Assembly: GCA_030427125.1 (NCBI GenBank)
Contig: JAUHXF010000003.1
Location: forward strand, 1-63,038
Source: a bacterium
Lineage (GTDB): Bacteria; Patescibacteriota; Saccharimonadia; Saccharimonadales; SZUA-47
DNA length: 63,038 nucleotides
Direction: 5' to 3'
In this document: piece by piece, positions 36,681 through 60,500 of the stretch
How positions within the stretch are numbered: position 1 is the stretch's first letter
Layout: each line of letters starts with the position of its first letter
Program-made: the position numbers and the translations under genes
The notes under the pieces: model-generated
What the model saw: only the letters and a program-made list of their open reading frames with translations
What the model was told of the DNA's origin: nothing
Databases searched by the model: none

Positions 36681-37490
36681 ATGAAAACCCGAGTTTGGCT
36701 TAAGCAAGCCGTGTTACAACTTCAAAACTCCGATATATCCACTGCTCAACTCGATGCAGAATTGCTTCTTGCGGACCGGCTCAAGAAGGACCGCTCTTGG
36801 CTGCACGCTCATCCAGATTTTGAACTGCAGAGATCGGACCTCCGCATATTGAATGAACAGATTACACGCCGCTCAAACCATGAGCCGATTGCGTATATTC
36901 GAGGAAAACAAGAATTCTTTGGACGTGAGTTTATAGTTTCACCTGCCACGCTCACGCCCCGCCCTGAGACAGAGACTATGGTTGAAATGGCTTTAAATTT
37001 ACTTAAAAAACACGCTATAAAATCAGTAGCTGACGTTGGTTCAGGTTCTGGCTGTATTAGCATTTCTTTGCAACTTGAATCGCAGACTTCAGCCAGTATT
37101 ACTGGTTATGAAATCTCACGGGAGGCCCTGGAGATTGCTCTAAAAAATGCAAAAAAACTAGGAAGCACAGTAGCGTTTCGTAAATCTGACATCACCGCTA
37201 CCAAAGAGGGGTGGTCTGAGTCAGAATTAATCCTTGCCAACCTTCCCTACGTGCCAACAGATTTCAAGATTAATAACGCAGCAACACATGAGCCGGACTT
37301 TGCTATATTTGGCGGCAAAGACGGTCTAGACTACTACAGAAAACTTTTTGAAAATCTCTCCAATCAAGTGCAATTTGTTCTTGCCGAGAGCCTCCCACCA
37401 CAACACAGCGGTCTGCAAAAAATTGCAGAGTCAAATGGCTTCAAACCCGTTGAAACCAACGACCTAATTCAGCTATTCGCGAAGAAATAA
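36681..37490 (+). CDS. prmC: Release factor glutamine N5-methyltransferase PrmC (HemK)
   Basis: SAM motif DVGSGSGCISISL and the catalytic NPPY-type motif ANLPYVP. The N-terminal helical domain begins AELLLADRL. Confidence 0.85.
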   Translation: MKTRVWLKQAVLQLQNSDISTAQLDAELLLADRLKKDRSWLHAHPDFELQRSDLRILNEQITRRSNHEPIAYIRGKQEFFGREFIVSPATLTPRPETETMVEMALNLLKKHAIKSVADVGSGSGCISISLQLESQTSASITGYEISREALEIALKNAKKLGSTVAFRKSDITATKEGWSESELILANLPYVPTDFKINNAATHEPDFAIFGGKDGLDYYRKLFENLSNQVQFVLAESLPPQHSGLQKIAESNGFKPVETNDLIQLFAKK

Positions 37491-43990: not shown

Positions 43991-46900
43991 CTATCTCACC
44001 TGTAGGCGCAACGTTGATATACCGAGCTCGGTTTCCCCATCACCTCCAGAGCACACAATACGCAATTGGACTTCTTCCGCTTCAGTTATATCTGAGCTTA
44101 CGTCGTTCCAATCAGTCTTTATGCTCGTCGCATTGTCAGCATCTACGCTGCCATCCATTGTTACCCAATCTTCAGATCCAGAGAGTTGGTATTGCATAGA
44201 ACACTGTGTTCCCGTTGAGCCAGCCGTACTAATAGATGCAATTATTCTGTACTCAGATACAGAGCGCAGATCGAGCCAGGTTCGAGGCTGACCTGGCATT
44301 TCACTCTCATCAGATTCTACCGCCCACTGCGTAATGTTATTTGCAATGATGTATTCACTTACTACAGATGTGACACAGTCAACCCATTCGTTGTCCTGGT
44401 AGCAGCGGAACTTCTGCATGTATTCGTTATAGTATTGTGCACCATTGACACCTATAGGATCATCTGGTGAGTTTGAGCGAGACAGGATGAATAATACTGC
44501 TGATGGATCAGATGAACCGCCGCCAATCTGTACCACACCGCCCTCAGTATTCACACTGAAGAGATCTATACCATTTTCATCTGCGATGTTGAACGCCTTC
44601 TCTGAAGTCACACGAAGACCAAGCGAACCATCGCCGCTCAAGGTAAATGTATCATTGCCTGCGTACGTTACTTGCAGAACTGCATCATTCGCTGCTTCAG
44701 CCTCGAGTGCAACCTGCTTCGCTTCAACGGTGTATGCGCCGAGTACGTTACCGACCGATCGAATACCACTGAAGTTGTTATCGATACCACCTGCGAGTAG
44801 TGTAATTCCATTAATGTTTACCAACTCTCCTTCTCGTGTGAGTCGTATTATTCCGTCTGTAGCGACACTGTTTACATCTATATCAGTGAACTGTTGCGGG
44901 AACTCAAGCCCATCAGCTGGGATGCTATAGTTTGTTTCTGAAACATAATATGTAAGGCCGACAAATACATCGATCAAGCCGTCTTCGCTGGCATCTTCCA
45001 TCGCGACACCTAGCGCTGTACCGGTCTGCGTCGCCTTAACCGCTCGGCCGTCTGGACCACTCGTCAGGTAATCCCCCTTCTCGATCAAGCCATTCGCTAC
45101 ACTCACTTTTGTTGGCAAACGACCCTTCAAGCCTACTGGCACACCATCGACACCGGCGTCGAGAATAATCGCTGCATCGGAAGAGACTACACCAGCAAGA
45201 CCCTTTTGGTATTGCTGACTTGATTTAGCGACTGTGCGATTATCTACAAAGTAAACTACATCACCAGGCTCTGCACCATCACTGTTCTTGTAGTTCTCGG
45301 CGATATCTGCACCATTAGAGATGTTATTGGTGCCGTCTGAAAATACATCTCCATCACTATCTACTCTAAAGACAACATTGCCGACAGAGCCAACATCACT
45401 TCTTAGGGCCAGTAGGTCGACATTTGATGTCGAGCTTGCATTATAGCCTTCAATGACATTGTCACTATATGTAAATGGACCTAGTTCAGTAATGGTAATA
45501 GTATCGATTCCAAAGTCATTATGCCAATTAGTACCTGCGGCCGGTAATGTCACAACAAATCGTACTTGCGTAGAAGGATCGCTCACCACACCACCACCTA
45601 GGTCTAAACTTTCAAAATTCCAGACATCTGTTGGACCTGTAGGCTGATCACCACCACCATACGTTCCTCGGGTCACCCAACCTGCCCCAGCTTCATTTGT
45701 TTGTACTGTTAGTATCGCAGTGTTATCATCACCTCTTTGATTCCAGTAAAAATCAATTGATAGACCATTTGTAGCATCGAACGTAGAGTTATTTGTCATA
45801 GTAAATACATCGCCGAAAGCACCAGGAGTAGAGGCTTCCGTGTATACATATCCGTCCGGGTTGCCACCCTGTCCTGAGACAGGACCGACATCTGTAGATG
45901 GAGTCTGATCGGTGTCATGAACCCAGAAACCATTGCTACCACCCGCTGCTTGTAGGCCTGGTCCTTGCGGCGACACGAACGTCCAAGCTGCTTCATCGGC
46001 ATCATTATCTGCATTAAATGTATATGGTCCGGTTGAAGTACCTGGCAGTTGTGCTGCACCAGTCGTGATCGCACCTTCGAAATAAGCAGTCGAGGACACG
46101 ATGCCGTTAGTACCAGCAACATTGAGCACTGTACCTACATCTAGGCTATTTGCAGTCGTCACTGCGCCGTTGAGGTTAACAGCACCCGTTCCTGTACTAA
46201 ACGTACCTGTTCCACTTATTGAGAAGTTTCCGGCAGTTTGCGTATATCCTGTTACGCCACTCAATGCCCCACTATTTATAATGAGTCCGTTGATTGTGTT
46301 CACGCTAGTCGGAGCTGTAATAGCATTGTTCGCAGTTAAGAAATCTACAATAACTGTAGTCGCATCAACGGTTCCTGTTGTGGAGAGACCGCCTACTGTC
46401 GCAGTGCCAGATGCATCTATCGTCGTGACTCCAGCGACTGCACCTGCATTTATAATGCCGTTATTTCCAATGTCTAGCGAACCTGCTGACAGCGCGATAC
46501 CGTTATTTGCAGTAAACAGTCCGTCAACATCGAGTGCTCCTGTAAATACTGAGTCACCCGCTACATCAATATCAAGTACGGTGTTTCCATTGGTAAAGAG
46601 CCGCAAGCCATTTGCATCAGTTGTACCGAGCTGCGCTGTGCCGCCAAATGCATTTCCACCATTTAGGAATTCCAGACCTGATGAGCCACCACCACCACCG
46701 CCACCTACAACCGCATCACTATCTACTACAAAGAAATTCCACGATCGATCAACGCGAACACCAGCAGTGCCGCCATTGTCACCTTCGTGCACATCAACAT
46801 CGAAACCAGCTGTTGAAATGTTATCTGCTGTTATGATGACGTCGTCAAGCGTTGCGACTGGCTCATCAACAGTGAGCTGGATAGTGTAGTTTGCAGTAGA

Positions 46901-49900
46901 TGCCGCTGAATCGAATGTTACCCGATAATCACCTGTTGCATTCTTAGTAACAGTTGCACCTTCTTCATTGAGAGCAGAACCAGCAACACCATCATACTTA
47001 CCAAAGGCTAGTACACCTTCAAGTAGTGGTGCGCTTGTAGGAGTGGTTAGTGAGACCCACTGTGAACCGTCATAACCCTCGAAGTCAGCACCAGTCCAGC
47101 GTATCGTACCAGCAACCGCACTCACCGTATTTCCTACGCGCAACCCGTCGTTAAACGACTGCAGTGAACTAAATCCTTGTGCAGTATCAAGTCTTGCAAT
47201 ATTGGCAGAAAGCCTTGCATCACCAATTGTTCCAGTCGTGATCTGCGTACCATTAAGGGCAGTCAATCCGCTTCCATCACCCGTGAATGATGAGGCCACA
47301 ACATTGCCGCTGCTCGTGATATCACCTCCAGATATGTCGCCTTCTACCAAAAGGCCCGCGACTTGAGATAGATCACTGTTCACAATTGAGAAGGTTGTCG
47401 TGCCCGATGCATCAAACAGGTCAAGTGTCGTTGTACCTGTACCTATGCGTTGCAAGGTATCAGCATCAAGGATAATATCGCCACTTGCGCTAGACAGTGT
47501 GAGATCTGCAAACGTACCGCTTGAAATTGTTAAGCCATTTGCAGCGGTAATATCACCGTCTATTGTCAATCCACCGTCAACAGTTAGATCATTTTCAAAC
47601 GTCGCAAGACCAGCAGATGTAAAGGTTAATGCGTTGCTTCCGTTGGTTATGATGTTGAGCCCAAATGTATCAGTCGTTCCAAGGATAGCACCTGCACCAA
47701 AACCATTTCCTCCTTGTTCAAACGCAGTTCCGCCGCCTCCGCCGCCTCCGCCACTTGCAGCAGAAACAGGGACAATCGTTGCAGATGTACCGCCATGGGT
47801 CGTGATGTTTCCAGTGCTGCCATCAACGAAGAACTCAACATAATCTCCTGCGGTTAAGTCAAGAATAACGCTTACACTTCTCTCGACAGGATCAACTGCG
47901 GTGTGCACAAACGTATCATGATTGTATACACTCGCGCCGTTCACCTGGACCAACAAGTTCGTCAACGCATTAGCGCTGGTCTCTAGCATGTAGTTTGCAT
48001 CGACTTTATAAACTCCGTCAGTTGCAATTGTGAAGCGACCGTCTGCAGGAGTGTACACAATACCGTTCGATGCATTTGTTGTGCTTGAATACGCTGCATA
48101 ACTACCTGATTGGAACACATCGTATAAAGCTGTGCTAGCATTTGAGTTCGCTGTCGTCGTAACACTGATGTAGTCGCCGGCTGGATCTACACTGCCACCA
48201 CTTGTCAAGCTCACCCAGTCAGTTCCGTTATAGACCTCGAGATCAGCACCAGTCCATCGAATATTTCCAGCATTCGTAAGTGCACTATTGCCAACGGTTA
48301 AGCCACCGCTAAACGTTGTGTTGTTATCGAAAGTGTTTGTACCGCTGAAGTTCTGCACACCATCAAGTCGAGCGATATTCGACGACAGCACAGAGTCTGA
48401 GATTGTACCGCTTGAAATGGCTGAACCGTTTAGGTCAGTTAACACTGAGCCATCACCAGAGAAGCTAAGCCCAGTAATTGAGCCTTCAACAGTTAGATTG
48501 GCTACTTCTCCTGGATCACTGTTTGTAACCACCAGCCCAGTTGCCCCGCTGTTGTCGTTGAGGTCAATTGTCGTACTACCAGCACCATTTCGACGAATAG
48601 TGTTGTCAGCCAAAACAAGCGTATCGCTGGCTGAGTCTAACGTGAGGTTACCAGCACCACCACTAGAAATCGTCAAAGCATCAGCAGCCGATATATTGCC
48701 AATATTTACCAAATCTTCACTATTAAGGTCTAGTGAATCGCCGCTCACCGTGAGGCCGTTGTTGAATGTTGCAGCACCTAATGCGTCGATTGAAAGGGCA
48801 ACATTTCCGTCCGTCACGATGTCGAGGCCATTTGTATCAGTCGTACCGATAACACCAGTAGCATCGAAAGCATTTCCACCTTGCTGGAATGCAGTCGTTC
48901 CGCCGCCACCCCCATCGTTACCGAGTCTCGTTACCGTCATACTTGTGGCATTTGAGATAGTTGTGAACGATTGTGAGGTACCAGCACCCACAAGTCGAAG
49001 CGTATCACCAGCATCAAGCTGCAGTGTCACAGTTGCAGCAGAAGTACCTTGTGTCTCTGTAGTGATTCTTCCATAGTGATAGGACTGTCCACCAGATACA
49101 TCGCTGTATCCACCACCAGTGTCAAGCTGCAGCTTCGCGTTAAATCCAGATCGAGTACCGCTTGCTAATCGACTCGTTACTTGGTAGGAAATCTCATAAT
49201 AGCCATCTTCTGTTACCGTCACTTCATCTGCTGCCAGACTCAATACCGTCGGATTTGAGTTACTAAGCGTTCCGTCGAGGTTGATAGTCGTGAATGACCC
49301 TGACGGAATTGTTGCCCCGCCAGTTGCATCAAAGAATGTTGCCGTTGCTGATGAAACTGCACCAGCACCTCCAGCTGTCAGCGAAACCCAATCAGCTCCG
49401 TTATAGACCTCGAGATCAGTGCCTTGCCAGCGGATAGTTCCAGCAGTTGTCGAGGTTGAATCGCCAAGTGTCACTCCACCTGCGAGCACTGCGTTTCCAT
49501 TCTTATCGACTGTAAGCGCATTTGAACCGTCACCCTGCAATTGGAGCAATGCCCCACTACCAGTCTGGTTGAGTCGCAATGCAGCTACTGCTGAATTGAG
49601 TGCCTGAACGCTTGATGGTGATAGTTGCGCGAGGTCATCACCGGTCAATGCGTTACCCGCTCCATCTAAAACAGCCCCGGCACGAAAGGCGTACGGGACT
49701 GCAGTGAGTTTGAAGCGTGGCGTCATCTCGCCATCCGATTCAACATTCATGCCGAGCCAAAGTTCTTGATCCCACGGTATCGTATTCGGGAATGCTGTCA
49801 CATCGCCGAGGTAGACGCTAAAGTAACCGTTGCGAATCGTGACTTGATTGCCACCTGTTCGGGATTCAGTCCAGAGTGTTGAACCACCTGTATCAACAGA

Positions 49901-50173
49901 GTAGAGATTGAACTCGATATCATAGTCACCATCATCGACAAGTGATCCGCCGTTTGTCAGCAATCGCCCCTGGAAGTTGAGGGTGTCAGACGTAGCAGCT
50001 TCAGCTGGTGTGAAGATAGCGAGAGAAGTAATAACAGATACGAACAAAATAAAAATTGGCAAAAGAAAACTAATGGTAGTTCCCTTTTGCCATTTGGCAT
50101 GCCTTTGCTTATTAGGAAGCACGTGTCGCAAAATATTGCCCGCTTTTGTTTTTGTTTTTTTGATTTCTACCAA
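43991..50173 (-). CDS. Giant modular cell-surface fibre protein (2060 aa) built from tail-fibre-like modules
   Basis: N-terminal basic segment plus TM/signal (ISFLLPIFILFVSVITSLAIFTPAEA). Three super-modules each open with a poly-Gly run followed by TAF(Q/E)QGGN(A/G)F, and contain S(F)SGDGS.LT.LNG and IRW.G.D(L/F)E.Y(N/D)G..WVSLT motifs. A MAM-like domain ends NWHNDFGIDTITI. The TTG start at 50173 is uncertain. Confidence 0.8.
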   Translation of the reverse strand: MVEIKKTKTKAGNILRHVLPNKQRHAKWQKGTTISFLLPIFILFVSVITSLAIFTPAEAATSDTLNFQGRLLTNGGSLVDDGDYDIEFNLYSVDTGGSTLWTESRTGGNQVTIRNGYFSVYLGDVTAFPNTIPWDQELWLGMNVESDGEMTPRFKLTAVPYAFRAGAVLDGAGNALTGDDLAQLSPSSVQALNSAVAALRLNQTGSGALLQLQGDGSNALTVDKNGNAVLAGGVTLGDSTSTTAGTIRWQGTDLEVYNGADWVSLTAGGAGAVSSATATFFDATGGATIPSGSFTTINLDGTLSNSNPTVLSLAADEVTVTEDGYYEISYQVTSRLASGTRSGFNAKLQLDTGGGYSDVSGGQSYHYGRITTETQGTSAATVTLQLDAGDTLRLVGAGTSQSFTTISNATSMTVTRLGNDGGGGGTTAFQQGGNAFDATGVIGTTDTNGLDIVTDGNVALSIDALGAATFNNGLTVSGDSLDLNSEDLVNIGNISAADALTISSGGAGNLTLDSASDTLVLADNTIRRNGAGSTTIDLNDNSGATGLVVTNSDPGEVANLTVEGSITGLSFSGDGSVLTDLNGSAISSGTISDSVLSSNIARLDGVQNFSGTNTFDNNTTFSGGLTVGNSALTNAGNIRWTGADLEVYNGTDWVSLTSGGSVDPAGDYISVTTTANSNASTALYDVFQSGSYAAYSSTTNASNGIVYTPADGRFTIATDGVYKVDANYMLETSANALTNLLVQVNGASVYNHDTFVHTAVDPVERSVSVILDLTAGDYVEFFVDGSTGNITTHGGTSATIVPVSAASGGGGGGGGTAFEQGGNGFGAGAILGTTDTFGLNIITNGSNALTFTSAGLATFENDLTVDGGLTIDGDITAANGLTISSGTFADLTLSSASGDIILDADTLQRIGTGTTTLDLFDASGTTTFSIVNSDLSQVAGLLVEGDISGGDITSSGNVVASSFTGDGSGLTALNGTQITTGTIGDARLSANIARLDTAQGFSSLQSFNDGLRVGNTVSAVAGTIRWTGADFEGYDGSQWVSLTTPTSAPLLEGVLAFGKYDGVAGSALNEEGATVTKNATGDYRVTFDSAASTANYTIQLTVDEPVATLDDVIITADNISTAGFDVDVHEGDNGGTAGVRVDRSWNFFVVDSDAVVGGGGGGGSSGLEFLNGGNAFGGTAQLGTTDANGLRLFTNGNTVLDIDVAGDSVFTGALDVDGLFTANNGIALSAGSLDIGNNGIINAGAVAGVTTIDASGTATVGGLSTTGTVDATTVIVDFLTANNAITAPTSVNTINGLIINSGALSGVTGYTQTAGNFSISGTGTFSTGTGAVNLNGAVTTANSLDVGTVLNVAGTNGIVSSTAYFEGAITTGAAQLPGTSTGPYTFNADNDADEAAWTFVSPQGPGLQAAGGSNGFWVHDTDQTPSTDVGPVSGQGGNPDGYVYTEASTPGAFGDVFTMTNNSTFDATNGLSIDFYWNQRGDDNTAILTVQTNEAGAGWVTRGTYGGGDQPTGPTDVWNFESLDLGGGVVSDPSTQVRFVVTLPAAGTNWHNDFGIDTITITELGPFTYSDNVIEGYNASSTSNVDLLALRSDVGSVGNVVFRVDSDGDVFSDGTNNISNGADIAENYKNSDGAEPGDVVYFVDNRTVAKSSQQYQKGLAGVVSSDAAIILDAGVDGVPVGLKGRLPTKVSVANGLIEKGDYLTSGPDGRAVKATQTGTALGVAMEDASEDGLIDVFVGLTYYVSETNYSIPADGLEFPQQFTDIDVNSVATDGIIRLTREGELVNINGITLLAGGIDNNFSGIRSVGNVLGAYTVEAKQVALEAEAANDAVLQVTYAGNDTFTLSGDGSLGLRVTSEKAFNIADENGIDLFSVNTEGGVVQIGGGSSDPSAVLFILSRSNSPDDPIGVNGAQYYNEYMQKFRCYQDNEWVDCVTSVVSEYIIANNITQWAVESDESEMPGQPRTWLDLRSVSEYRIIASISTAGSTGTQCSMQYQLSGSEDWVTMDGSVDADNATSIKTDWNDVSSDITEAEEVQLRIVCSGGDGETELGISTLRLQVR

Positions 50174-50471: not shown

Positions 50472-50494
50472 ATGCAGAGGTCGGACCTCTGCAT
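50472..50494. repeat. Copy 2 of the perfect palindrome, here 23 nt (atgcagaggtc-g-gacctctgcat), 15 nt after the hydrolase stop
   Basis: An 11-bp perfect stem with a single central base and no flanking U-tract. It is identical to 51533..51555. Confidence 0.9.
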
Positions 50495-50509: not shown

Positions 50510-51445
50510 CTACTGTATGTTCGTGATGCTGTCTACGTAGTTATAAGTGAGAAGAGATATGCGAGCCATTTCCTGACTTGCAACGGGGTCAGTGCCTCTA
50601 ATTACGATACAAAGGCTATAATTAGCCGCCCCATCTTGTGCATATACAATTCCACAATCAGTTCTATAGATACTAGAGAAACTCCCAAACTTATGAGACA
50701 CACGAACATCCTCTGGTAAGAGCTTTGTTATACGATCTGTTGAGTTCGTTCTCGACAAAATCTCAAGGATTTCATTAGAATCCGTCTTATTGTTGTAGCA
50801 TGCAAGATAGAGGCACTTAAAGAGTCGTGAATATTGCTGAGAGGTTATGGTAAGCCGATTATCCACATCTACTGTTCGCTGTTCGTCTAGCGTGTTAAAC
50901 ACATTTAAAACACTCTCGGCTTGAAATGGTAGTAGTGATATGAGTGTTTCCGATGCGGTGTTATCTGACTCAATAAGCATGATATTAACTAATTCTTCAA
51001 TTGAATATGATTTACCGAGTGCTGTTTTATAGAGGTCACCGTATTCATCGTTCAAAAGATCCTCTGTAATTGTTACTTGCTGGTCGAACGATAAATTGCC
51101 ACGTTCTACGAGCTTATAGATTTCCATTGCGACAGCAGTCTTCATGAGAGATGCAGCAACGACTTCTAGCTCAGGGTTAATGGTGAAGGAAACCCCACTC
51201 GAGAGATATTCAAAATAAACTCCTATGTTTTCATTATCTGGGCCTATGTCGTTCAATAACGCGTTCTTTAACCCCGTGAAATCAAACCGTATATCATTAG
51301 GGTTCTCAATAAAAAGCTGTTTCGCTAGATACGGAAACTCTTGGGCTTGCTGCGTTTCATGTCGAATCTCGTACTGATACCCTATAAAGAGCCCTAGCAC
51401 AAACACGACGAGCAATACAGCTGCTTGTTTGATTCCAGTGTTCAT
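50510..51445 (-). CDS. Membrane-anchored class A beta-lactamase-fold serine hydrolase
   Basis: SxxK (AASLMKT), SDN (IESDNTASETL) and a KTG-like KFG (SHKFGS), in the canonical order and spacing. N-terminal TM (AAVLLVVFVLGLFIG). I moved the start to ATG 51445, because the ORF-track start at 51499 is a TTG lying inside promoter-like sequence. Confidence 0.65.
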   Translation of the reverse strand: MNTGIKQAAVLLVVFVLGLFIGYQYEIRHETQQAQEFPYLAKQLFIENPNDIRFDFTGLKNALLNDIGPDNENIGVYFEYLSSGVSFTINPELEVVAASLMKTAVAMEIYKLVERGNLSFDQQVTITEDLLNDEYGDLYKTALGKSYSIEELVNIMLIESDNTASETLISLLPFQAESVLNVFNTLDEQRTVDVDNRLTITSQQYSRLFKCLYLACYNNKTDSNEILEILSRTNSTDRITKLLPEDVRVSHKFGSFSSIYRTDCGIVYAQDGAANYSLCIVIRGTDPVASQEMARISLLTYNYVDSITNIQ

Positions 51446-51475
51446 CCTCGTTTTTTTGTCTACCTTTTCATAAGC

Positions 51476-51481
51476 ATTATA
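51476..51481 (-). promoter_or_regulatory. Candidate -10 box (TATAAT) for the hydrolase gene
   Basis: The minus strand reads GGGGTATAATGC 30 nt upstream of ATG 51445. I found no convincing -35 element. Confidence 0.3.
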
Positions 51482-51531
51482 CCCCTGCCATATATACAAT
51501 TCCTATATAATTCTGTGTATTTTTAAGTCTT

Positions 51532-51556
51532 TATGCAGAGGTCGGACCTCTGCATA
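51532..51556. repeat. Copy 3 of the perfect palindrome, here 25 nt (tatgcagaggtc-g-gacctctgcata), 32 nt after the stop of the >3816-aa gene
   Basis: A 12-bp perfect stem. It has the same central base orientation as the other two copies, and no U-tract. Confidence 0.9.
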
Positions 51557-51588
51557 GACTTATTCACGTATTATTTTTTCAACTATTC

Positions 51589-54500
51589 TTACTGGAGGAT
51601 CTGGTAGTCGAAGCTGTAAGTCTCGTTCTCTGCCGGAATGTCGACAAAGTGAAGAGTGAAGCCATTTTCGTCACGGGTTACAAAGTAATCTATCGTTGCT
51701 GAAGATGCGTCGAGCGGTGTTAGTGTCACGCGCGGTGCTTGATCATACGCTTCATCGAATATGATTTCTATCTGCTCTCCAGCTGCGATTGGATTCGCTA
51801 CTGTATCTGTACCCGTTTCGAATTCGATTGTTCCAGCAGTGTCATTTCCTTCGATAGTGTAGCTACTTCCCTGTCCTGTGGTGGTTGCACCTAGCACCGC
51901 AGTAGGTACATTACCGGCGGTGATAATCTTACCGTTGACTTTGAGGTCGGCTACTTCTGTGGTGCCTGTTACTTTGAGATTAGCTATGGTCGCTGTTCCT
52001 GTGACGGTTAGCTTAACGGTGGTTGCCTGGTTAGTTACGGTGATATTTTTCTTAGTGAGAGAGTTAGTTGTGGACTCGAGGACTGAGAGACGTGATTCAG
52101 CTGATGAGATGCGGGAAGTGTTTGACTGGACTTGAAGATCGAGCTCTTGGATAGAAGATGCAAGAAGAGATGTAAGGTGACGGTACTTTACTCCTGTAAG
52201 CTCACCTTCAGTGTCAAACTCTGCAAAGATCGGATTTACTGCCGCAACCTCTTCTGCAATGAAGCCAGTGTCCCAAATCTTATCATTTATGTTCCACTTA
52301 TATTTAACAGGTCGAAGTTGGCGAAGCGTTTCGAGGCCCCAAGGTAGTGTCGTAGTGTGGTCTTTGAAGCGCTGAAGCGATGTACAACGTGTGAGTGCGT
52401 AAGCTGTTACGCCAAGCTGTGTGTCGCCTGCGTTACGACAAACGGTGTTGCCTGTAAAAGCTGTGTTTGTAAAGCGAAGGTCACCAATATTCATCCCCGT
52501 AGCTCTATGATTCCCTGTTTCAAAATAGTAGTTCAATCCATCAAAGCCTAAACCTATAGTAGTCGAAGAGACATTACTAAATGTGAGATCACCACCAAGT
52601 GTTAAATTATCAGGTGAATATATTTCATTTGCGTTGTAATCAAATCTTAGATACGAAGCACCTGGCTGTGCGTTAGATACAGCTCCTGAGCCAATGAAGC
52701 CATAGCCATCCCCTCTGTATGTCATGTGCATAGAAGCTGCACCAGCCAATCCAGATTCACCTATTGATATGATGGCACCCTGACTGGTCCAGTTATCACC
52801 AGTATTTGGCGAAGCCAGTACAAGAGCAGGCTGAGCTAAGCCCGGTGCGACATACAGATCGCCGTTCGGATCAATTCTTAGCTGTCCGGCACTTGATGAA
52901 CAGCCCGAGGCTGTACAGTTTGTTCCAAACCTTAAGTCTGTGCCACTTGCAGACCAAATCATTGATCTGCCCGTACCTTCACTAAATACTAATCCTCCAC
53001 CCCAGTTCCCTTCTACCCGAATTGCGGCATCATCGTTTGATGTCGGGCTGAATCCAGCCCTCAATACAGTAAGGGCATTATCTGGAGCAGTGTTTCCTAT
53101 GCCGACATTTCCATTAGCTCTTGCTGTCAATATAGCTGTGTCATATGTAAAGTCTCCTGTATAGTTACCGCCGCCGCTGATAATACTAAAAGCGTCTGCT
53201 CCATCATTTTCATATAGTCCGACAACCAGATGTCCTGAATTGGCTCCCTGTATTAAACCGCCGAAGGTAGATCCAGGTACTAGACTTGTGATATCGGTAT
53301 CTCCAGAGCCATAAGATAATAGCTGAATAGAATTACTATTGACACCTATCTTTCCAGTAAAATCAAAATCACCTGACGTATTTACAGTGAGTCGCACAGT
53401 ACCGGCAGTCGAAAGGTTTGGTTCATGGAATAATCTGAGCGTACTAGAAGAGTTGTCTAGATTCCAAACAACATTTGCAGCAGGGTTTGTTGCGTTTCCT
53501 AGTGTGAGCCTAGATTGTCCAGAGCCAGCAACGAGCAAGTTTCCTCCCCACACGGTTGTTTTTACATCTGTGTCATGCTGTGTAGATGTGCCGATACCCA
53601 CAAAATCTCCGGAATTTACCAAAGTAGTAGACCCACCTGACGATGTCCATGCGCCACTTCCTCCACTACAGTTACCAAGGTTGACTAGACATACCTCATC
53701 GGTACCCACAAATGCTGGTATATCTAATACGGTATCGCCTCCAAGGTTATCAACTTGCAATGTTACTGTTTGACCAGTGCCATCAGATATTCGTAGTTGC
53801 CCTTGAGAAGTTGGTTCTCCAACTAGAACAGTGTCCCTGAGGAAAGTTGTGCCTCCAGCAGACTGGATGACATAGTTGTTCCCCAAAGAAGCTTGGCCGC
53901 CGTAGACTGTGTTGGTTCCTTGATCAAGTATTGTGCTGGATCCAGAACCGTAAAATGTGTTACCTTCAAGAATTGTCCCATCCGCTGACGATTGAATATG
54001 GATTGCGTAACCTGTACCTGAAGTATTAGTAATAAAGTTGTTTGAAATCTTTATATTATCACCTATAACATTTATACCGTCCAATCCCGAAGAATCTAGG
54101 CCGAAGTTTTCTATTCTGTTATTACTCACTATTGTATCCACGGATCCAGAATTTATATAAATTCCATCGTACCCCGTATCCTTGATATTATTGCCATCTA
54201 TTACAGTATTTTCTGATTGTGAAAATATACCATAGTCACTGCTAATATTGGATATTATATTGTTAGTCACAATTGTGTTGTTGGATTCAGTCTCTAAAGC
54301 TATGCCAGGATCACTTATTGATCCTGAGATAGTATTATTTGAGATAATATTCTCAAGAGAATTTTGTATTCGTATACCATAGCCACCAGCTGATATTGTG
54401 TTGCCTTCTATTAAGGTTCCTGATCTCAAACCTGCACTACCGTTAGCAACGTATATCGTATCTGCTGTTGCAATATTTGAGGTGAAAGAGTTGCCGGATA

Positions 54501-57500
54501 TTACATTGTTTTGAGCTATTCCTGTAGGAGAATATATGTATATAGCATGGTTAAAGGCAGGACCATTATAATCTGTTAATGTACTATTGATAACTTTGTT
54601 ATTTGAACTATCTTGAAAATGTATATTTGATCCATATGCAAAGTTAATGATGTTTACATTTTCTATAATTCCTCCAACCCTTCTTGTAGTTGGTTCTCCG
54701 ACATCGTCAAAATATATAGCTCGTTGAGTGCCACCAGTACCCAGGGAGCCGTCAAGTGTCAGATTACGGATAGTTTGACCGGTTCTATTTGTACCTGTAG
54801 CTTGAATCAAGTTGTCTGTTCCGGCACCTACTGAAAGCCTAATAATTGTGCCAATTCCTGCTCCTTCAAGAGTGGTGTTATTAGGTATGAGGATTGTACC
54901 GTCTGCAGTATACGTGCCTTCTGCAAGGTAGACTTTACCACCTGCCGCCGCAGAAAGCGCTGAGTTAATCTCTGTTTCGTCGCTTGTACCGTCAGTGTAG
55001 TAATCAGCTGTGATGCCTGAGCCTGATGGAGCGACGATGAAAGTAGCTGTCTTCGGACCGGCACATGCTCCCCAGACAGGCAGCGTGCCGTTTGATACAA
55101 GACATTGGCCATTGGTACCTATACTTCTTTTAGCTATAGTTGTGCTGTTTGATGCATAGAGAATATCGCCGGTTGTATATGAAGTGATGCCAGTACCGCC
55201 GCGAGCAGTTGTTAATGTCCCACCTGTAAAGAATGTACCAGCATCTGCATTCGTTACATTGCTCAAAACACCTGTGCTGTTTATTCTAGTTGTGCCAGCT
55301 GTACGTATTTCAGAACCAGCATCAACAGTCTGATCGACATATAATCTGCCATCATTTGTGAGCGACATAGCTCCTTGTGACTGTGAGTGACCATCTTGGC
55401 CCCACCACCAACCACGGTTAGCCGTGTTGTTCATTTGGAATGTCATGGCATAACCATTTAGGTATCCGTATGTAAAGGAGTTTTGCATACCTATTGTGTA
55501 AAGGTTGCTGTTCCAAACCCGAATCTTGTCTCTTGTGCTAGTTGAGTTTGCAGTGTAGACACCAGAATTAGTAATATTCCCGAAAGTTACGCTGTCTGTA
55601 GTCTGAACATTTTGATTCATATCATATAGTTCATTCGCACCTTGACCGGTGTCTAAGGTAGTAGCTGTCAAAGCACCTGAGAATGATCCTGAGCCAGCAT
55701 TTACGATGTTCCTGCTGCCATCGATGATTGCTGTGGTGCCTATTTTAAGATCCCTAACTCGCAGTGTTTCATAGCCGGTACCAGGATTATCTAACACGGC
55801 AAGATCACCGGATGTGTCACCCTCTAGGAAACCAAACTGCGACGCTACTGCACCACCGAGATGGAAGCCAATGCGTGGAGACCTACCGGATGCGCTTGTT
55901 TCGTACACTTCGATACCAGCCTGTGAATATGCAGCTCCACTGCTTCCTGTGAATCTTTGTTCAGCAGTGAAAAGCTGGTTAGATCGATCAAGTAGTGCAA
56001 CGTTTGAAGTCAATCGAGCATCAGCTAGAGTGCCTGAACTGATGTTAGAAGCGTTGAGGCTAGTCAGCGAAGCTCCAGAACCAGAGAATAGATTACCATT
56101 GATAGTACCCGGCACCGTAAGAGAACCATCTGCTCCGAAAGTAGAAGCATAACTTGCTGCATAGCTGCTCTGTCTATTTGTTATTACTTGAACTGCACCG
56201 TCTGCAGTCAGGTATAACTCTTCGCTGGTTGTACCTGCAGCAATTCCAAGATCACTAACCAATGCGACACCGTTGTCTCCCGCATGTAGAATAGTTGAAC
56301 TATCTGAATACTGAACATAGCCGCCTTGGTTTGTAATTTGCTGCATTGCACCACCAGTCCAGGCTAATCTGTTGTTGCCTGTCGAAGCGCCTAAAGTAAC
56401 TGAGTTAAATGTAGGATTGTCGGATGTTCTGAGGTTTTGGTTACCAAGATATCCAGCGATAGTATTCACTTCTTGTGCGCCGTTGCCTGTGTTGATGGTT
56501 GCGAAGGTTGGTGCAGATGTTGTTGCGATATCCTGAGGCAAGCTTAGAGTAATGTTCGATCCAGATGGAGTAACCGTTATTTGGTTAGCTGTACCTACGA
56601 CGTTAAGGTTACCTGTTAGTGAATTTAAGCTCAGTACTCCGGAACCCGCGGATGCGTAATTACAATTATTGCTAGCGTCACAAATCTCATTTCCAAATAC
56701 ATATGCATCATTTGTATCTGCCTCAAGCTGAAGAGGGTGTGGACCTTCCCATGCATCGTCTTCGTTGCGATCCGCCAATACATAGAAGTTGTTCGAATTC
56801 ACATGAATCCAAAAATTGTCGTTTGCATCGCTATCGTTAAAGTAAAGCTGAGGTGAAGCTTCAGTCAATGTTAGTTCTGCTCCAAATGAAGGACTGTCGG
56901 TCGTACGCAAGTTTTGGTTACCTAGGTACTCAGCAATTGTGTTTACTTCAAGCGCACCATTCCCAGTATCTATGGTAGAGATATTCTGAAGGGCGCCGGC
57001 ATTAGTCAGTCTAGTTGTTCCTGCTGTTTGTATCGCTCCAGTTACAAAATTAGTGTTTCCTGTGCCCTGATCGATTATCAATCTATCGGCGCTTCCATCT
57101 GTCACTACAAGGTCATCACTGGCTGCACCGTCATTCCAGATACTCCATCTTTCAACACTCTGGTTATAGAACGCTATTCCTATATCTCTATCAAAGTTAG
57201 AGTTAAGTTGAAGTGCAGTTCTATTACCTTGGTTTGCAGTGTTATTAATACGTGCAATTGCAGTTCCTTGACTCTGTCCGTCGTTTACAGTGAAGCCTCC
57301 CCCTACTGTAATATCGCCACCACTCTCTGTAATCACTGAATCGCCTAGCGTTCCAGTTCCAGTAAATACTGGTACTGTTCCGCTTGTTCCAGAGCCAGTT
57401 ATCGCTCCTGAGCCAGCAGTACAGGTAACGAGTTGGTTTGAGCCGTTGAGACAGATTGCTGAGCCTGTGCCTGCTCCTAAGCCTGTGTAAGTGATTGTGC

Positions 57501-60500
57501 CAGAACTTGTTATGCCAGTCAGGCCAGTAATGCTATTGGTAGCAGTAATTGCTCCTGTATCCTGTACCTTAAACACAAATCCGGTGTCGTTATTTGCCGG
57601 CGCTACCGCGCTGTGAATTGTAAATTCATCAGAGCTATTATTGTTTGTGTCTAAGAATATTCGAGTGTTATTGATTGAGTCAATAAGTATGCCGCTACCA
57701 GACTCTTGGATGCCTGCAACAGTACCGTTGAAAGTAATTTCTTTGCTCGCACCACTTAGTGCTAAATTTCCTGTTAAAGTAGCGCCGCCAAAGGTAGGCG
57801 AATCAGTAGTTCTAAGATTTTGGTTACCAAGATACTCAGCAATAGTATTCACTTCTAGCGCACCATTGCCCGTATCAATGGTTGTGATGTTCTGAAGAGC
57901 ACCGGCATTTGTAAGTCGAGTTGTACCGTTAGTCTGCAGGCCTCCTGTTGTAATATTAAAGTTTCCTGCTGAAGATAGATTTGCCGCCTCATACTCCGTA
58001 GAATTTGATACACGAAGTGATAGTGATGTATTGCCTGTACCTTGATATCCTGCTGTTATAGCTGCTTCGTTCGCACCTGATATACCAAATGCTAGGTATT
58101 CAGTTGATGTATTTGCACCATCAATACGCAGCGTAAGTGCATCATCTGAGCCATTTGCAATTTGTAGTTTTGTAGATGGATTGTTCAAACCTACACCCAA
58201 GTTCCCATTTTCAAAATATGAATTACCATCAGTAACCGTAAAGAAGTCGCTTGTATCTGCAAAGTTACTCACCTTTAGCAATGTTGCATCGCTTCCTGAG
58301 TTTCCAGCTAAGATTTGTACACCTTTAGCAGTACCGCCGCCATTAGAAATTGATACATTGTAATTCGTATTACTGCTGTTGGTTAGACCTAGCGTCTGCC
58401 CGTTGTAGGTGAAGCCTGCTCCTGAAGCTATAGAACCACTACCGTTAAAGTAAGCTACTTGGTTAGCTGTGCCACTTCCAGTAATACCGCCTCCACTTGA
58501 ACATGCTCCCCATGAGGCAGTGGTGCCATTAGATACGAGACAGGTGTTGTTGCCTCCGATGCCTAGTTTGCTCCAGGTGTTTGAGCCTGCTCCGAGGAGT
58601 AGATCTCCTACAGACGTAGTGGACTGACCTGTACCACCACGGGTGGCTGCAAGCGTACCAGTGGTACCAGTTCCTAGTGGGAGACTGGTTGCGTCAGTAA
58701 GGTTAAAGGCTGGTGTAGCATCACTAGAACCAAGGGATACAGATACTCCACCATAGCTGACTGAACTATTTGCTAAGTAAGTATTAGCTATAGCATTACC
58801 TTGGTAGGTAACATTCTGTAATACCCCCGCGTTAGTAAGCCGGGTAGTGCCCCCTGTTTGGATAGCACCACCTGTTGAATTGATGTTACTGCTAAATGTG
58901 CCCGTTCCATTGATGAATAACGCTGGGTTATTCACATCAATCCAACCAGTCACGACATCTGAATCAGTTTCAATAAACTGTATTTGAGCATCAGCTTCCA
59001 ATGAAATACCTAAGTCATAAGGAGCTGAACCTCCGCCAGTTAGAGCATTTATCCCGCTCCTAAGCGGAATAACTGCATAGTCAGCACCAGCTCCAGCGGA
59101 TCCGGTAGCTCCAGAGCCTGTAGCAAAGCTCGCATCCCCATTCACCGTCAGCCCATTGAATGTCGGCGCTGAAGTAGTGGTGAGGTTCTGCCCTGTATCA
59201 TACTCAAGCTGTGTGTTTCCAATCGAGTTATTTGCTATAGAAAGGTTTATGTTTGAGCCTGATGGGGTGACAGTAAGTTGGGTGTTGCCTTGGATGCTGA
59301 GTGCACCGGTGAGGGAGTTAAGTGAAGTGACGCCTGCTGTGCCAGCAACACTGGCTTGAGACACCCAGGTGAAGCCACCAGTAGTGTGGTCATAAGTAGC
59401 AACGTAGTTATCTTGGCCTGCTCCTGGAGCAGTGGTGTTGTCTAGGTCTTGTGCAAGAATCGTGTCATTGGCTATTTCTTGGGTACGAACAGAACCATCA
59501 ACTATCTCGGCTGAGTTAACACTGTTTGTTGCCAGTGAGGTAGCATCAATGCTGTTGTCGGCTATTTGGGCATCGTCTATACAGTTGGCGGTAATGGATA
59601 CGTCATTGGCATTGGCAGTGATACAGGTGCCTGCTCCGACGTTGAGGGTTGTGCTTCCGCCAAGAGAGACAGAGCCACCGTTAGCTAGGCCATTACCAGC
59701 GGTGACGGTAATAGAAGAGTTTTGTAGTTCTCCATTAGAGATTTGTCCATCGTCTATGATGGATAGGTCTGTTTCAGATATGTTGGTTGAACCTATGATG
59801 AGGTTAGCACCGGTAATGGTTAAGTCTCCAAGTAAGCTTGCATTGCCTGTCTCTGCGACTTGGAAGAGGATGTTGGTTGGGGTGAGGTCACCAAGGCCTT
59901 CGTTCTTCACCACTGAGAAGGTTTGGGTATCTGCATCATTGTTGTTGTAGTCAATGGCGATGATGGCTGAGTCTTCTGCTCGAACGGCTAGGTTACCGCC
60001 ACTGTCATAGATATCTCCACCAAGGGCAGCGATGTCTCCATCGGATTGAAGGAAGTCTGTTTGGACGGTACCGTCAAAGTAGGCATTAGCAAACTGTTCG
60101 GTAGCAGTACCTAAGTCATAGGCATTGGTTGTGCTTGGGATGATGTTACCACCAACCGTGATCTGTCCGGCTGGGTTGAGGAGGATGTCGCCTGATGTGG
60201 TTGTTTGTAGGGTGAGGTTGCTACTTGTTCTATTGATGGTGGTGACAAAGTCTAGTTGGGACTCCAGGTTAATGGTTGTTCCTGTGATGTCTATGTCATT
60301 ACCTGCACTATACGTTGTGTCTGTACCGACACCACTTTGAGCTACCCAATTGAAGCCACCTGTTGAATGATCATAGATAGCTACATAGGTATCTTCAGAA
60401 GCTCCTGGAGCTGCGCCGTTGTTTTCGAGGTCGACGGCGAGGATTGTGTCATTAGCTATTTCTTGGGTGCGGACTGAGCCATCAACTATCTCTGCAGAGT

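Follow-up and report, generated by a model that had tools for sequence, protein, structure and literature searches.

A Peptidase S74-type chaperone domain ahead of a stalk and a lectin-like head in a giant, apparently secreted fibre protein of a Saccharibacteria-like bacterium

The way of life of Saccharibacteria, as of other Patescibacteria, is attachment to host bacteria, and little has been learned about how the host is recognised and gripped. Among the described systems closest to the protein reported here are the H-type lectins, which are oligomeric, and the proteins that carry a Peptidase S74-type intramolecular chaperone domain. The characterised S74 domains of phages are released after folding (PMC4690869; PMC12143355). 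In the pb1 fibre of phage T5, which is related to the L-shaped tail fibre solved as 8hqz, self-cleavage occurs at Ser1264, between Thr1263 and Ser1264, and the C-terminal helix of the domain makes a triple coiled coil (PMC4690869). An internal S74 domain has been published for MYRF, whose cleavage yields two separate trimers (PMC3742443). Our literature search returned no paper linking S74 domains to Saccharibacteria or Patescibacteria.

Layout of the giant protein and its S74 domain

We examined a giant open reading frame (ORF) at the end of the window, the whole stretch of 63,038 nucleotides that was analysed. The ORF is listed as 51589..62970, and its reading frame remains open as far as position 63038, where the contig ends, giving a protein of at least 3,815 aa. 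Approximately 100 N-terminal residues are missing, and with them the protein would measure about 3,900 aa. The adjoining paralogue and the full-length relatives share its N-terminal ~100 aa, and the full-length relatives start with a signal-peptide-like segment, and the product is apparently a Sec-exported, secreted fibre protein. The features are as follows, in order from the N-terminal side.

51589..63038, minus strand: giant ORF; 3793 aa are listed, 22 further in-frame codons reach the contig end, and the N-terminus is off contig
54112..54546, minus strand: right-handed parallel beta-helix domain (aa ~2809-2953) of the kind found in tailspike depolymerases (Pfam)
52384..52440, minus strand: conserved Cys3511...Cys3529 loop right before the predicted cut, a putative disulfide (pattern in relatives)
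52378..52383, minus strand: predicted scissile bond Thr3530 / Ser3531, Ser3531 being the predicted nucleophile (alignment and T5 pb1 precedent)
52363..52365, minus strand: Lys3536, codon AAA, predicted general base of the Ser-Lys dyad (alignment)
52231..52374, minus strand: aa 3533-3580, matched by Pfam Peptidase_S74 (31.5 bits; cut-off 22)
52087..52398, minus strand: whole intramolecular-chaperone unit, aa 3525-3628 (family profile A2, local hmmsearch)
52066..52185, minus strand: long helix, aa 3596-3635, predicted trimeric coiled coil closing the chaperone unit (AF2 monomer model)
51934..52065, minus strand: beta-repeat stalk, aa 3636-3679, with L-x-V-T-G-type repeats (sequence inspection)
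51592..51933, minus strand: beta-sandwich head, 114 aa, aa 3680-3793 (AF2 pLDDT 93.3, pTM 0.84)

Upstream of the S74 domain, the segment 53680..55113 matched the Pfam families Beta_helix (PF13229, E 4.7e-19) and NosD (E 3.1e-12), and by this order of domains the product is tailspike-like; the 427 aa directly upstream of the S74 domain had no Pfam match. Against PHROGs, the whole protein was assigned to no family, and its C-terminal 370 aa gave weak matches only, to tail-fibre families. When the giant relatives were compared mutually, similarity was concentrated in the last ~285 aa and was patchy elsewhere. Additionally, the protein holds 20 Cys, in 10 local pairs. Together with the signal-peptide-like start of relatives, the Beta_helix domain and a BclA_C/C1q-like domain in the paralogue, these pairs speak for an extracellular, trimeric fibre.

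The earlier note on this DNA had proposed a Peptidase S74-type domain, and the profile search agrees, with 31.5 bits against the curated gathering cut-off of 22 bits for Peptidase_S74 (PF13884), profile positions 3-54 of 58 aligned, and an E-value of 2.2e-7 on the whole protein and of 9.6e-9 on its last 370 aa. The interval that it gave, 52125-52385, lies in the right place and is a few bases too wide on either side, since the 85-aa peptide quoted corresponds to aa 3530-3614, encoded by 52129..52383 on the minus strand. A single-sequence phmmer search with the last 370 aa against PDB sequences found no solved homologue, only a chance coiled-coil match to SMC4, and a family profile was therefore needed to reach the solved S74 domains, namely 6f45 (phage S16 gp37; E 1.1e-9), 8jov (1.7e-9), 8hqz (2.9e-5) and MYRF 7dc3 (5.3e-5). 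Family profile A2 recognised the domain of the giant ORF itself with an E-value of 4.6e-42 (local hmmsearch), and its limits take in the alpha/beta body and the beginning of the terminal helix. The AF2 monomer model shows short helices and hairpins followed by a 40-residue helix (model residues 72-111, pLDDT ~95), and as modelled, the alpha/beta body and this helix resemble known chaperone domains. With the 269-aa monomer model as query, Foldseek listed no S74 structure, an outcome that intertwining of the domain in the trimer probably explains and that we count neither for nor against the assignment. On the profile evidence, the giant ORF carries a real S74-type intramolecular chaperone and autoprocessing domain, placed 263 residues from the C-terminus.

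The quoted peptide leaves 179 residues, and an extra domain of 175 aa had been suggested there. The sequence is indeed beta-rich, but it is not one domain and splits in three: ~20-40 aa of the chaperone's own coiled-coil helix, a stalk of ~45 aa and the 114-aa head. The stalk has no regular secondary structure in the AF2 monomer model, and its equivalents in relatives show weak or sub-threshold Bactofilin matches. By inspection, the 263-aa C-terminal fragment contains no hydrophobic segment.

With regard to the head, the Pfam profile H_lectin (PF09458) scored it sub-threshold, at 15 bits where 24 are required (E 0.026-0.038), whereas 21 of the 28 head-family members matched this profile, with a best E-value of 3e-6; the last ~58 aa of the head span the entire profile. 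Searching BFVD with the head model by Foldseek returned proteins of uncultured phages (E 5e-8 and 3e-7, TM 0.80-0.85), and among the BFVD matches are phage proteins that bear the name tail fibre or 'H-type lectin domain'. H-type lectins were also among the PDB matches, weakly (probability 0.51-0.91, E above 0.07, TM about 0.4-0.5), with 4q56, 2ccv, 2ce6 and 3wmp at probability 0.77-0.91, E at least 0.12 and TM 0.39-0.50, and further fold matches were the pyocin R1 tip and tailspike C-terminal domains. Against PDB sequences, the head-domain profile gave no meaningful match; it picked up designed 'Pizza' proteins alone, on account of a D-[ST]-A-G-T-V motif. The head would thus be distantly related to H-type lectin domains, as judged from profile coverage and modelled fold, and might bind sugars. 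It sits at the far end of the fibre, which is the place for a permanent adhesin, and cutting it off looks wasteful, an observation that counts against cleavage.

The Ser-Lys dyad and the predicted cut

The earlier note had pointed to a Ser at codon 52378..52380 and a Lys five residues later, and both residues align with the catalytic dyad of solved S74 domains. Ser3531 (codon TCG at 52378..52380) and Lys3536 fall on the Ser and Lys of S-D-x-R-x-K in the three phage structures matched by the family profile, the alignment to MYRF 7dc3 beginning just past the Ser position. Of 257 related domains, 253 keep the S-x4-K spacing, as do all 34 domains of the S74-plus-head architecture. The motif of the giant ORF reads C-T-S-L-Q-R-F-K and departs from S-D-x-R-x-K in the canonical Asp, which this subfamily lacks, and partly in the Arg; the matching segment of the 8hqz fibre, S-G-I-E-Y-K, likewise has no Asp.

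We place the cut at Thr3530-Ser3531 because of the T5 pb1 precedent at Thr1263-Ser1264 (PMC4690869). Most likely, the trimer would cut there and free a stalk-head fragment of 263 aa (28.6 kDa), close to the 260 aa or so that had been anticipated. A pattern C-x8-32-C-x1-3-S precedes the predicted cut in 31 of 33 evaluable S74-plus-head relatives, and in the giant ORF the putative Cys3511-Cys3529 disulfide would sit at the new C-terminus (...R-C-T) of the mature fibre. The part after the cut contains Cys in none of 42 relatives, and therefore no disulfide would tether the fragment after cleavage.

Recurrence of the module and fate of the fragment

The non-terminal position of the chaperone had been called unusual, which holds against the phage members compared and against the literature, but not among the nearest relatives. 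Phage tail-fibre genes match the chaperone unit only (query aa 2-108), and in the two that were checked the gene ends 2-5 aa past the S74 match, whereas the giant ORF has 161 aa beyond the part matching phage fibres, so that the domain is not the end of the polypeptide. Among the best 150 matches, 118 have at least 100 aa after the S74 domain, and the same S74-plus-head layout occurs in 25 of 142 relatives, the 25 being cluster representatives. This layout is routine among the relatives and absent from the deposited phage genomes searched, in none of which the stalk-head part was found. Furthermore, in a Saccharibacteria metagenome-assembled genome (MAG) the stalk-head module has an ORF to itself, of 153 aa, which overlaps the end of a giant gene of 3,203 aa; the module also terminates membrane-anchored Saccharimonadaceae proteins of 325-375 aa that lack S74, and in other proteins it stands behind a different 'DxAExY' domain. 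S74 domains occur in 192,153 cluster representatives, and many library proteins contain 2-5 internal copies; extracellular fibres may thus commonly be separated by S74, acting as a 'polyprotein cutter'.

These observations lead us to a reading that we regard as evenly balanced between right and wrong, in which the S74 domain of a giant tailspike-like fibre makes the trimer cut itself and the gene encodes a two-product precursor with an autonomous stalk-head. After export, the conserved C-terminal block (S74 body, coiled-coil helix, stalk and head) would set three chains in register, and the trimeric shaft would then fold onward from this block. Once the trimer has formed, Ser3531, activated by Lys3536, would cut Thr3530-Ser3531. 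One product would be the mature fibre, ending ...Arg-Cys-Thr and closed by the Cys3511-Cys3529 loop, and the other a separate trimeric fragment of 263 aa and 28.6 kDa per chain with the N-terminus SLQRFK. The fragment is more likely an autonomous, lectin-like stalk-plus-head product than waste, because the module also exists as a stand-alone ORF, in membrane-anchored proteins and behind 'DxAExY', and because the fragment is Cys-free; the giant gene would therefore work as a two-product precursor, as MYRF does. In all characterised phage cases the pieces are discarded, and the autonomous role of the fragment is therefore a guess.

Accepting cleavage, the fragment could alternatively be a disposable folding nucleus that registers the three long chains and is then discarded, which we judge unlikely. 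The concentration of similarity in the last ~285 aa of the giant relatives fits assembly and fits a role in specificity less well, the oligomeric nature of H-type lectins suits a trimerisation nucleus, and phage S74 domains are released in this manner (PMC4690869; PMC12143355). However, the stalk-head exists where there is no fibre to fold, in the stand-alone ORF and in the short membrane-anchored proteins, and the extra 161 aa are costly when the helix alone suffices in phage domains.

It is similarly improbable that the S74 domain trimerises without cutting, or that the cut pieces stay together, with the head as a permanent distal adhesin tip. The head does lie at the C-terminal, cell-distal end, like the receptor-binding domains of phage fibres and pyocins, it was matched in fold by the pyocin R1 tip, by tailspike C-terminal domains and by phage tail-fibre or H-type lectin proteins, and the motif lacks its canonical Asp. 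Yet the invariance of Ser and Lys (34/34 of the architecture) is hard to explain without catalysis, the fragment has no Cys to keep the pieces joined, and the literature searched held no non-cleaving S74 member with an intact dyad.

The gene neighbourhood bears on whether this is instead a phage or prophage tail-fibre gene with a domain serving virion assembly, as the earlier note had implied in naming endosialidases and tail fibres. In favour of this, the S74 part is matched by tail-fibre families of PHROGs and by tail-fibre genes of phages, and some structural relatives of the head are labelled as uncultured-phage proteins. The contig, however, is chromosomal, from a Saccharibacteria-like bacterium, and the family scan identified as neighbours SecA, Ser-, Lys- and Pro-tRNA ligases, ParA/ParB, PrmC, HtrA and LytR; none of the 20 other ORFs scanned in the window matched a phage family, the families matched being housekeeping ones. 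We dropped the prophage reading on account of these housekeeping surroundings, which contain no phage structural gene module. The size of about 3,900 aa, the signal-peptide-like N-terminus in relatives, the adjoining 2,060-aa paralogue, and the absence of the stalk-head from every deposited phage genome searched also argue for a giant, apparently secreted chromosomal protein and make a phage gene very improbable. The paralogue has a BclA_C/C1q-like domain and also a 'GADIAENY / DxAExY' domain; we suspected the latter of being a Peptidase_G2-type autoprocessing domain, but it had no Pfam match even at E 10. Finally, a chance or decayed, functionless S74 resemblance, to which the modest 31.5 bits and the blank single-sequence phmmer search might point, is scarcely credible given a score above the curated threshold, a profile reaching solved S74 domains at 1e-9, the local profile E-value of 4.6e-42, and a motif and architecture kept in 25 cluster representatives.

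The region 51400..53000 was found identical, with 0 substitutions and 0 indels, in Logan contigs from four runs, which may be just two datasets each deposited twice, since the sizes and depths of the contigs pair up; the samples in which this contig occurs are biofloc samples. A single-protein scan of 185,579 species genomes found one locus, in an unclassified MAG (63% identity), and the taxonomic spread is therefore judged from few named matches.

Going further, and only tentatively, the self-splitting precursor could yield a depolymerase-bearing mega-fibre of ~3,650 aa and a 28.6-kDa stalk-head lectin, both extracellular trimers, with the stalk-head as a Saccharibacteria-specific, interchangeable cassette for host or glycan recognition. 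If so, the cassette comes in four ways: behind S74, behind the 'DxAExY' domain unrelated to S74, in a small ORF of its own by a giant gene, and membrane-anchored. Giant surface fibres on the phage tailspike plan, in which a beta-helix is combined with a self-cleaving chaperone for trimerisation and with a lectin-like head, are plausible devices for attachment or for remodelling the host surface, and an ATP-independent chaperone suits a protein of 3,900 residues that folds outside the cell. S74 domains are often internal outside cultured phages, and annotators should take an S74 match as the sign of a probable cut, beyond which functional protein may still follow.

Comparison with known systems

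The C-terminal chaperones of phages (K1F endosialidase; T5 pb1; S16 gp37, 6f45; GA-1 gp12, 3gud) belong to the same sequence family as the domain of the giant ORF, and share with it the Ser-x4-Lys dyad at the N-terminal boundary. They have an alpha/beta body followed by a helix, and solved structures show this helix as a triple coiled coil; the monomer model suggests a like body and helix here, for which the same trimeric state is predicted. As in phage tailspikes, a depolymerase-type beta-helix lies upstream, about 570 aa away. The phage domain ends its polypeptide, whereas here 161 more residues form a stalk and a head; phage fibres are virion proteins, whereas this one is cellular, apparently Sec-exported and about 3,900 aa long; and the phage motif is S-D-x-R-x-K, in contrast to C-T-S-L-Q-R-F-K with its conserved Cys loop.

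MYRF / MrfA (ICA domain, 7dc3) resembles the giant ORF in having an internal S74/ICA domain (profile match E 5.3e-5). In MYRF a transmembrane helix and an ER-luminal region follow the domain, whereas a soluble stalk and a beta-sandwich head follow it here; furthermore, MYRF is eukaryotic and intracellular, and the protein of the giant ORF is bacterial and predicted to be extracellular. The H-type lectins (Helix pomatia agglutinin, SLL-2, discoidin II; PF09458), some of which end phage tail fibres, are like the head in profile coverage and, weakly, in fold matches, and differ in that the head, with 114 aa, is longer than the profile of about 67 and scores 15 bits against the cut-off of 24. Lastly, the stalk-head family of Saccharibacteria (P0033-P0041, P0042, P0031) has the same stalk and head, with 21-42% identity to the C-terminal 269 aa, and unlike the giant ORF its members carry no S74 domain; they are either membrane proteins whose anchor is an N-terminal transmembrane helix or the product of a 153-aa ORF that neighbours a giant gene.

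An S74 domain within a giant fibre gene

The window is one complete contig of 63,038 bp, and its fibre gene stays open for 22 further codons beyond the listed start, up to the contig end. Because these codons align at residue ~103 of the adjacent giant paralogue (2,060 aa), the complete protein should be ~3,900 aa long, with its N-terminus missing here. The features of this gene are as follows.

51589..62970, minus strand: giant ORF carrying the S74 domain, listed at 3,793 aa
54112..54546, minus strand: right-handed Beta_helix domain, aa ~2809-2953 (E 4.7e-19)
52129..52383, minus strand: peptide assigned to the S74 domain in the earlier note, aa 3530-3614
52378..52380, minus strand: Ser3531, codon TCG
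52363..52365, minus strand: Lys3536
Giant ORF aa 3511 and 3529: conserved Cys pair

We found a Pfam Peptidase_S74 match at aa 3533-3580, spanning positions 3-54 of the 58-position profile; in the whole-protein scan it reached 31.5 bits (gathering score 22) with E 2.2e-7. The HMM search proposed in the earlier note as a check of its S74 assignment thus bears the assignment out. A single-sequence search of solved structures gave no match. The A2 profile, built from 15 relatives, matched the solved S74 domains of the phage S16 long tail fibre gp37 (6f45; 1.1e-9), the tail fibre in 8jov (1.7e-9), the L-shaped tail fibre 8hqz (2.9e-5) and human MYRF (7dc3; 5.3e-5), and weakly the GA-1 neck appendage (3gud; 0.25). 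In all three phage alignments its Ser and Lys coincide with those of S-D-x-R-x-K, confirming the dyad proposed in the earlier note, while the MYRF alignment begins directly past the Ser. In an AF2 monomer model (last 269 aa, pLDDT 87.6), two short helices are followed by two hairpins and then by a helix of 40 residues, the order described for the T5 pb1 chaperone, which terminates in a triple coiled coil (PMC4690869). The region therefore encodes an S74 domain.

Searching a 1.84-billion-protein library with the A2 profile returned 192,153 cluster representatives (E ≤ 1e-3). We observe S-x4-K at the expected position in 253 of 257 domain instances, taken from the best 150 of the 192,153 and earlier homologues, and in all 34 domains from proteins sharing the downstream head. 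The subfamily motif is C-[TS]-S-[LS]-x-[RK]-[YF]-K, in which the canonical Asp behind the Ser is substituted. Since 8hqz carries S-G-I-E-Y-K at the matching place, likewise without the Asp, and the related T5 pb1 fibre is cleaved at Ser1264 with Lys1269 as activator (PMC4690869), this loss appears compatible with cleavage and need not prevent it.

The subfamily also conserves a Cys pair, C-x8-32-C-x1-3-S, which 31 of the 33 evaluable relatives have; the C-terminal fragment is free of Cys in all 42 relatives. The 20 Cys of the giant protein form 10 local pairs, 5-18 residues apart (174/189, 788/802, 1116/1130, 1477/1490, 1840/1850, 2097/2103, 2623/2636, 3094/3101, 3352/3357 and 3511/3529), which suggests an extracellular protein with putative local disulfide loops. 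In a related 209-kb contig (locus L001, 7100..7420), a frameshift within the Cys loop, ~20 codons before the S74 Ser, splits the homologous giant gene into separate calls of 598 and 235 aa; a sequencing error is one possible cause, a pseudogene another.

Stalk and head behind the chaperone

The stretch 51400..53000 is identical, without indels, in Logan contigs of four public runs from biofloc and other metagenomes, which may represent two datasets each deposited twice; even then, the fusion of S74 to the downstream sequence is no artefact of this one assembly. Behind the peptide of the earlier note 179 residues remain. Tail-fibre genes in deposited phage genomes match query residues 2-108 only (13 records), with a stop 2-5 codons past the match in two genes checked, and because the matches end there, the chaperone unit reaches ~aa 3632, taking in the greater part of the long helix. 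Additional sequence does follow, as the earlier note had claimed, but it is ~161 aa rather than 175 and consists of a stalk and a head instead of a single domain.

The stalk (~45 aa of L-x-V-T-G-type beta repeats) is unstructured in the AF2 monomer model; its counterparts in relatives match Bactofilin weakly. The 114-aa head, modelled alone, is a confident beta-sandwich (pLDDT 93.3, pTM 0.84). It scores 15 bits against Pfam H_lectin, below the threshold of 24, a profile matched by 21 of 28 head-family members (best 3e-6). None of the fold matches in the PDB is strong (E ≥ 0.07); four H-type lectin proteins appear repeatedly (probability 0.51-0.91, TM 0.4-0.5), and tailspike C-terminal domains, CBM3b and the pyocin R1 tip are also listed. 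Among predicted viral structures, two uncharacterised 'uncultured Caudovirales' proteins match strongly (E 5e-8 and 3e-7, TM 0.80-0.85, 28% identity), and proteins bearing the name H-type lectin or tail fibre occur among the weaker hits. Based on these combined matches we term the head H-type-lectin-like, a candidate member of that family.

We further find that the stalk-head unit is a movable module with four settings. It lies behind S74, as in the giant ORF; behind a different domain beginning G-A-D-x-A-E-Y (e.g. library proteins P0020, P0025, P0029 and P0030); as a separate ORF; and at the end of 325-375-aa Saccharimonadaceae proteins with an N-terminal hydrophobic helix and no S74. The stand-alone ORFs are located as follows.

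L002, 9990..10462: stand-alone stalk-head ORF, Saccharibacteria MAG GCA_028289135.1
L003, 5915..6376: stand-alone stalk-head ORF

In GCA_028289135.1 this ORF (153 aa, GTG start, other frame) has a 25-nt overlap with the end of a giant gene of 3,203 aa, whose product closes with a DLAEDY-type domain and a complete Phage_cement_2-like domain. Two assemblies, one of them an independent Logan assembly, agree exactly at the junction. This arrangement looks like the state that the predicted cleavage would yield, a giant fibre and a free stalk-head protein.

Cellular setting and predicted processing

Similarity among the giant relatives is concentrated in the last ~285 aa (62% identity to P0121, of 3,724 aa), with only short patchy matches elsewhere, the N-terminal ~100 aa among them. 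At their N-termini, full-length relatives (P0121, P0143, P0142, P0179) and the paralogue show a basic stretch, then a hydrophobic helix and a site resembling A-x-A, which by inspection we read as a probable Sec signal. The Beta_helix/NosD match was found on an isolated segment and missed by the whole-protein Pfam scan; such scans under-report domains in proteins this long and repetitive. Two neighbouring genes are as follows.

43991..50173, minus strand: paralogue, second giant protein, probably secreted, 2,060 aa, sharing its N-terminal ~130 aa with the giant ORF
50510..51499, minus strand: class-A beta-lactamase-fold protein between the two giant genes (Beta-lactamase2, E 3.1e-37)

The paralogue has a sub-threshold BclA_C/C1q-like match at aa 677-800 (36.4 bits, cut-off 38) and, at aa ~1621, a 'GADIAENY...' domain of the type preceding the stalk-head module in other proteins; the latter has no Pfam match and might represent another type of autoprocessing or chaperone domain. 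The beta-lactamase-fold protein carries an N-terminal hydrophobic segment and may be a cell-wall enzyme linked to the giant genes. A perfect 23-nt palindrome, ATGCAGAGGTCGGACCTCTGCAT, lies at 51533..51555, 34 nt past the giant-gene stop, and again at 50472..50494, 16 nt past the stop of the next gene (50510..51499), with degenerate copies (2-3 mismatches) inside ORFs at 14343..14365 and 36825..36847. No copy is expected in the window by chance and no T-run follows; one possibility is a terminator-like hairpin, another a REP-like element.

In the proposed mechanism, the giant protein would be exported, the conserved C-terminal block would nucleate a trimer, the shaft would fold, and Ser3531 with Lys3536 would cut the bond between Thr3530 and Ser3531, separating an acidic fragment of 263 aa (28.6 kDa, pI 4.5). 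We give an about even chance to this whole reading, in which the lectin-like product is autonomous rather than waste. That the fragment is a disposable folding nucleus seems unlikely, and we lean towards an autonomous product because the stalk-head module occurs independently elsewhere. An S74 domain that does not cleave, or a head retained as a distal adhesin tip, is likewise improbable, the invariant dyad speaking against it. The phage framing of the earlier note does not hold: the contig is chromosomal, encoding SecA, Ser-, Lys- (class I) and Pro-tRNA ligases, RlmD, a pilin-like protein, ParA/ParB, PrmC, HtrA, LytR and a beta-lactamase-fold protein, and no phage family was detected among 20 other window ORFs scanned; that the giant ORF is a phage gene is very improbable. 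The only organism-labelled SerRS relative is Candidatus Saccharibacteria (71% identity) and the named head-domain homologues are all Saccharibacteria or Saccharimonadales. A chance S74 match is scarcely credible given the profile scores.

Comparison with known S74 proteins

The earlier note called the non-terminal position unusual, which is true relative to characterised phage proteins but not relative to the protein's own relatives: among the best 150 of the 192,153 library matches, 118 have at least 100 aa past the matched stretch (median 147.5 aa). In a local re-scan of 142 proteins, the closest S74-bearing relatives, 25 (502 to 3,793 aa long) combine one S74 with the same head, placed behind it at an equal distance, and 100 contain between two and five internally placed S74 domains. 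The multi-S74 library proteins include P0107, P0110 with five copies in 5,473 aa and P0112 with three in 7,103 aa, and S-x4-K is kept in 202 of their 206 instances, mostly as canonical S-D-x-R-x-K. Such proteins have the look of self-cutting fibre polyproteins, each of which would give several trimers. Internal S74 domains are thus common in uncultured sequence space, and the result offers a well-defined, testable entry point to the surface fibres of an episymbiotic lineage.

The giant protein resembles a tailspike, with a depolymerase-type helix followed by ~570 aa without a Pfam match and then S74. The published internal case is the ICA domain of MYRF, where cleavage leads to two trimers (PMC3742443). 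The mechanism of S74 autoprocessing is already known; what is new is the predicted S74 autoprocessing domain in a giant cellular fibre, with a lineage-specific stalk and lectin-like head behind it.
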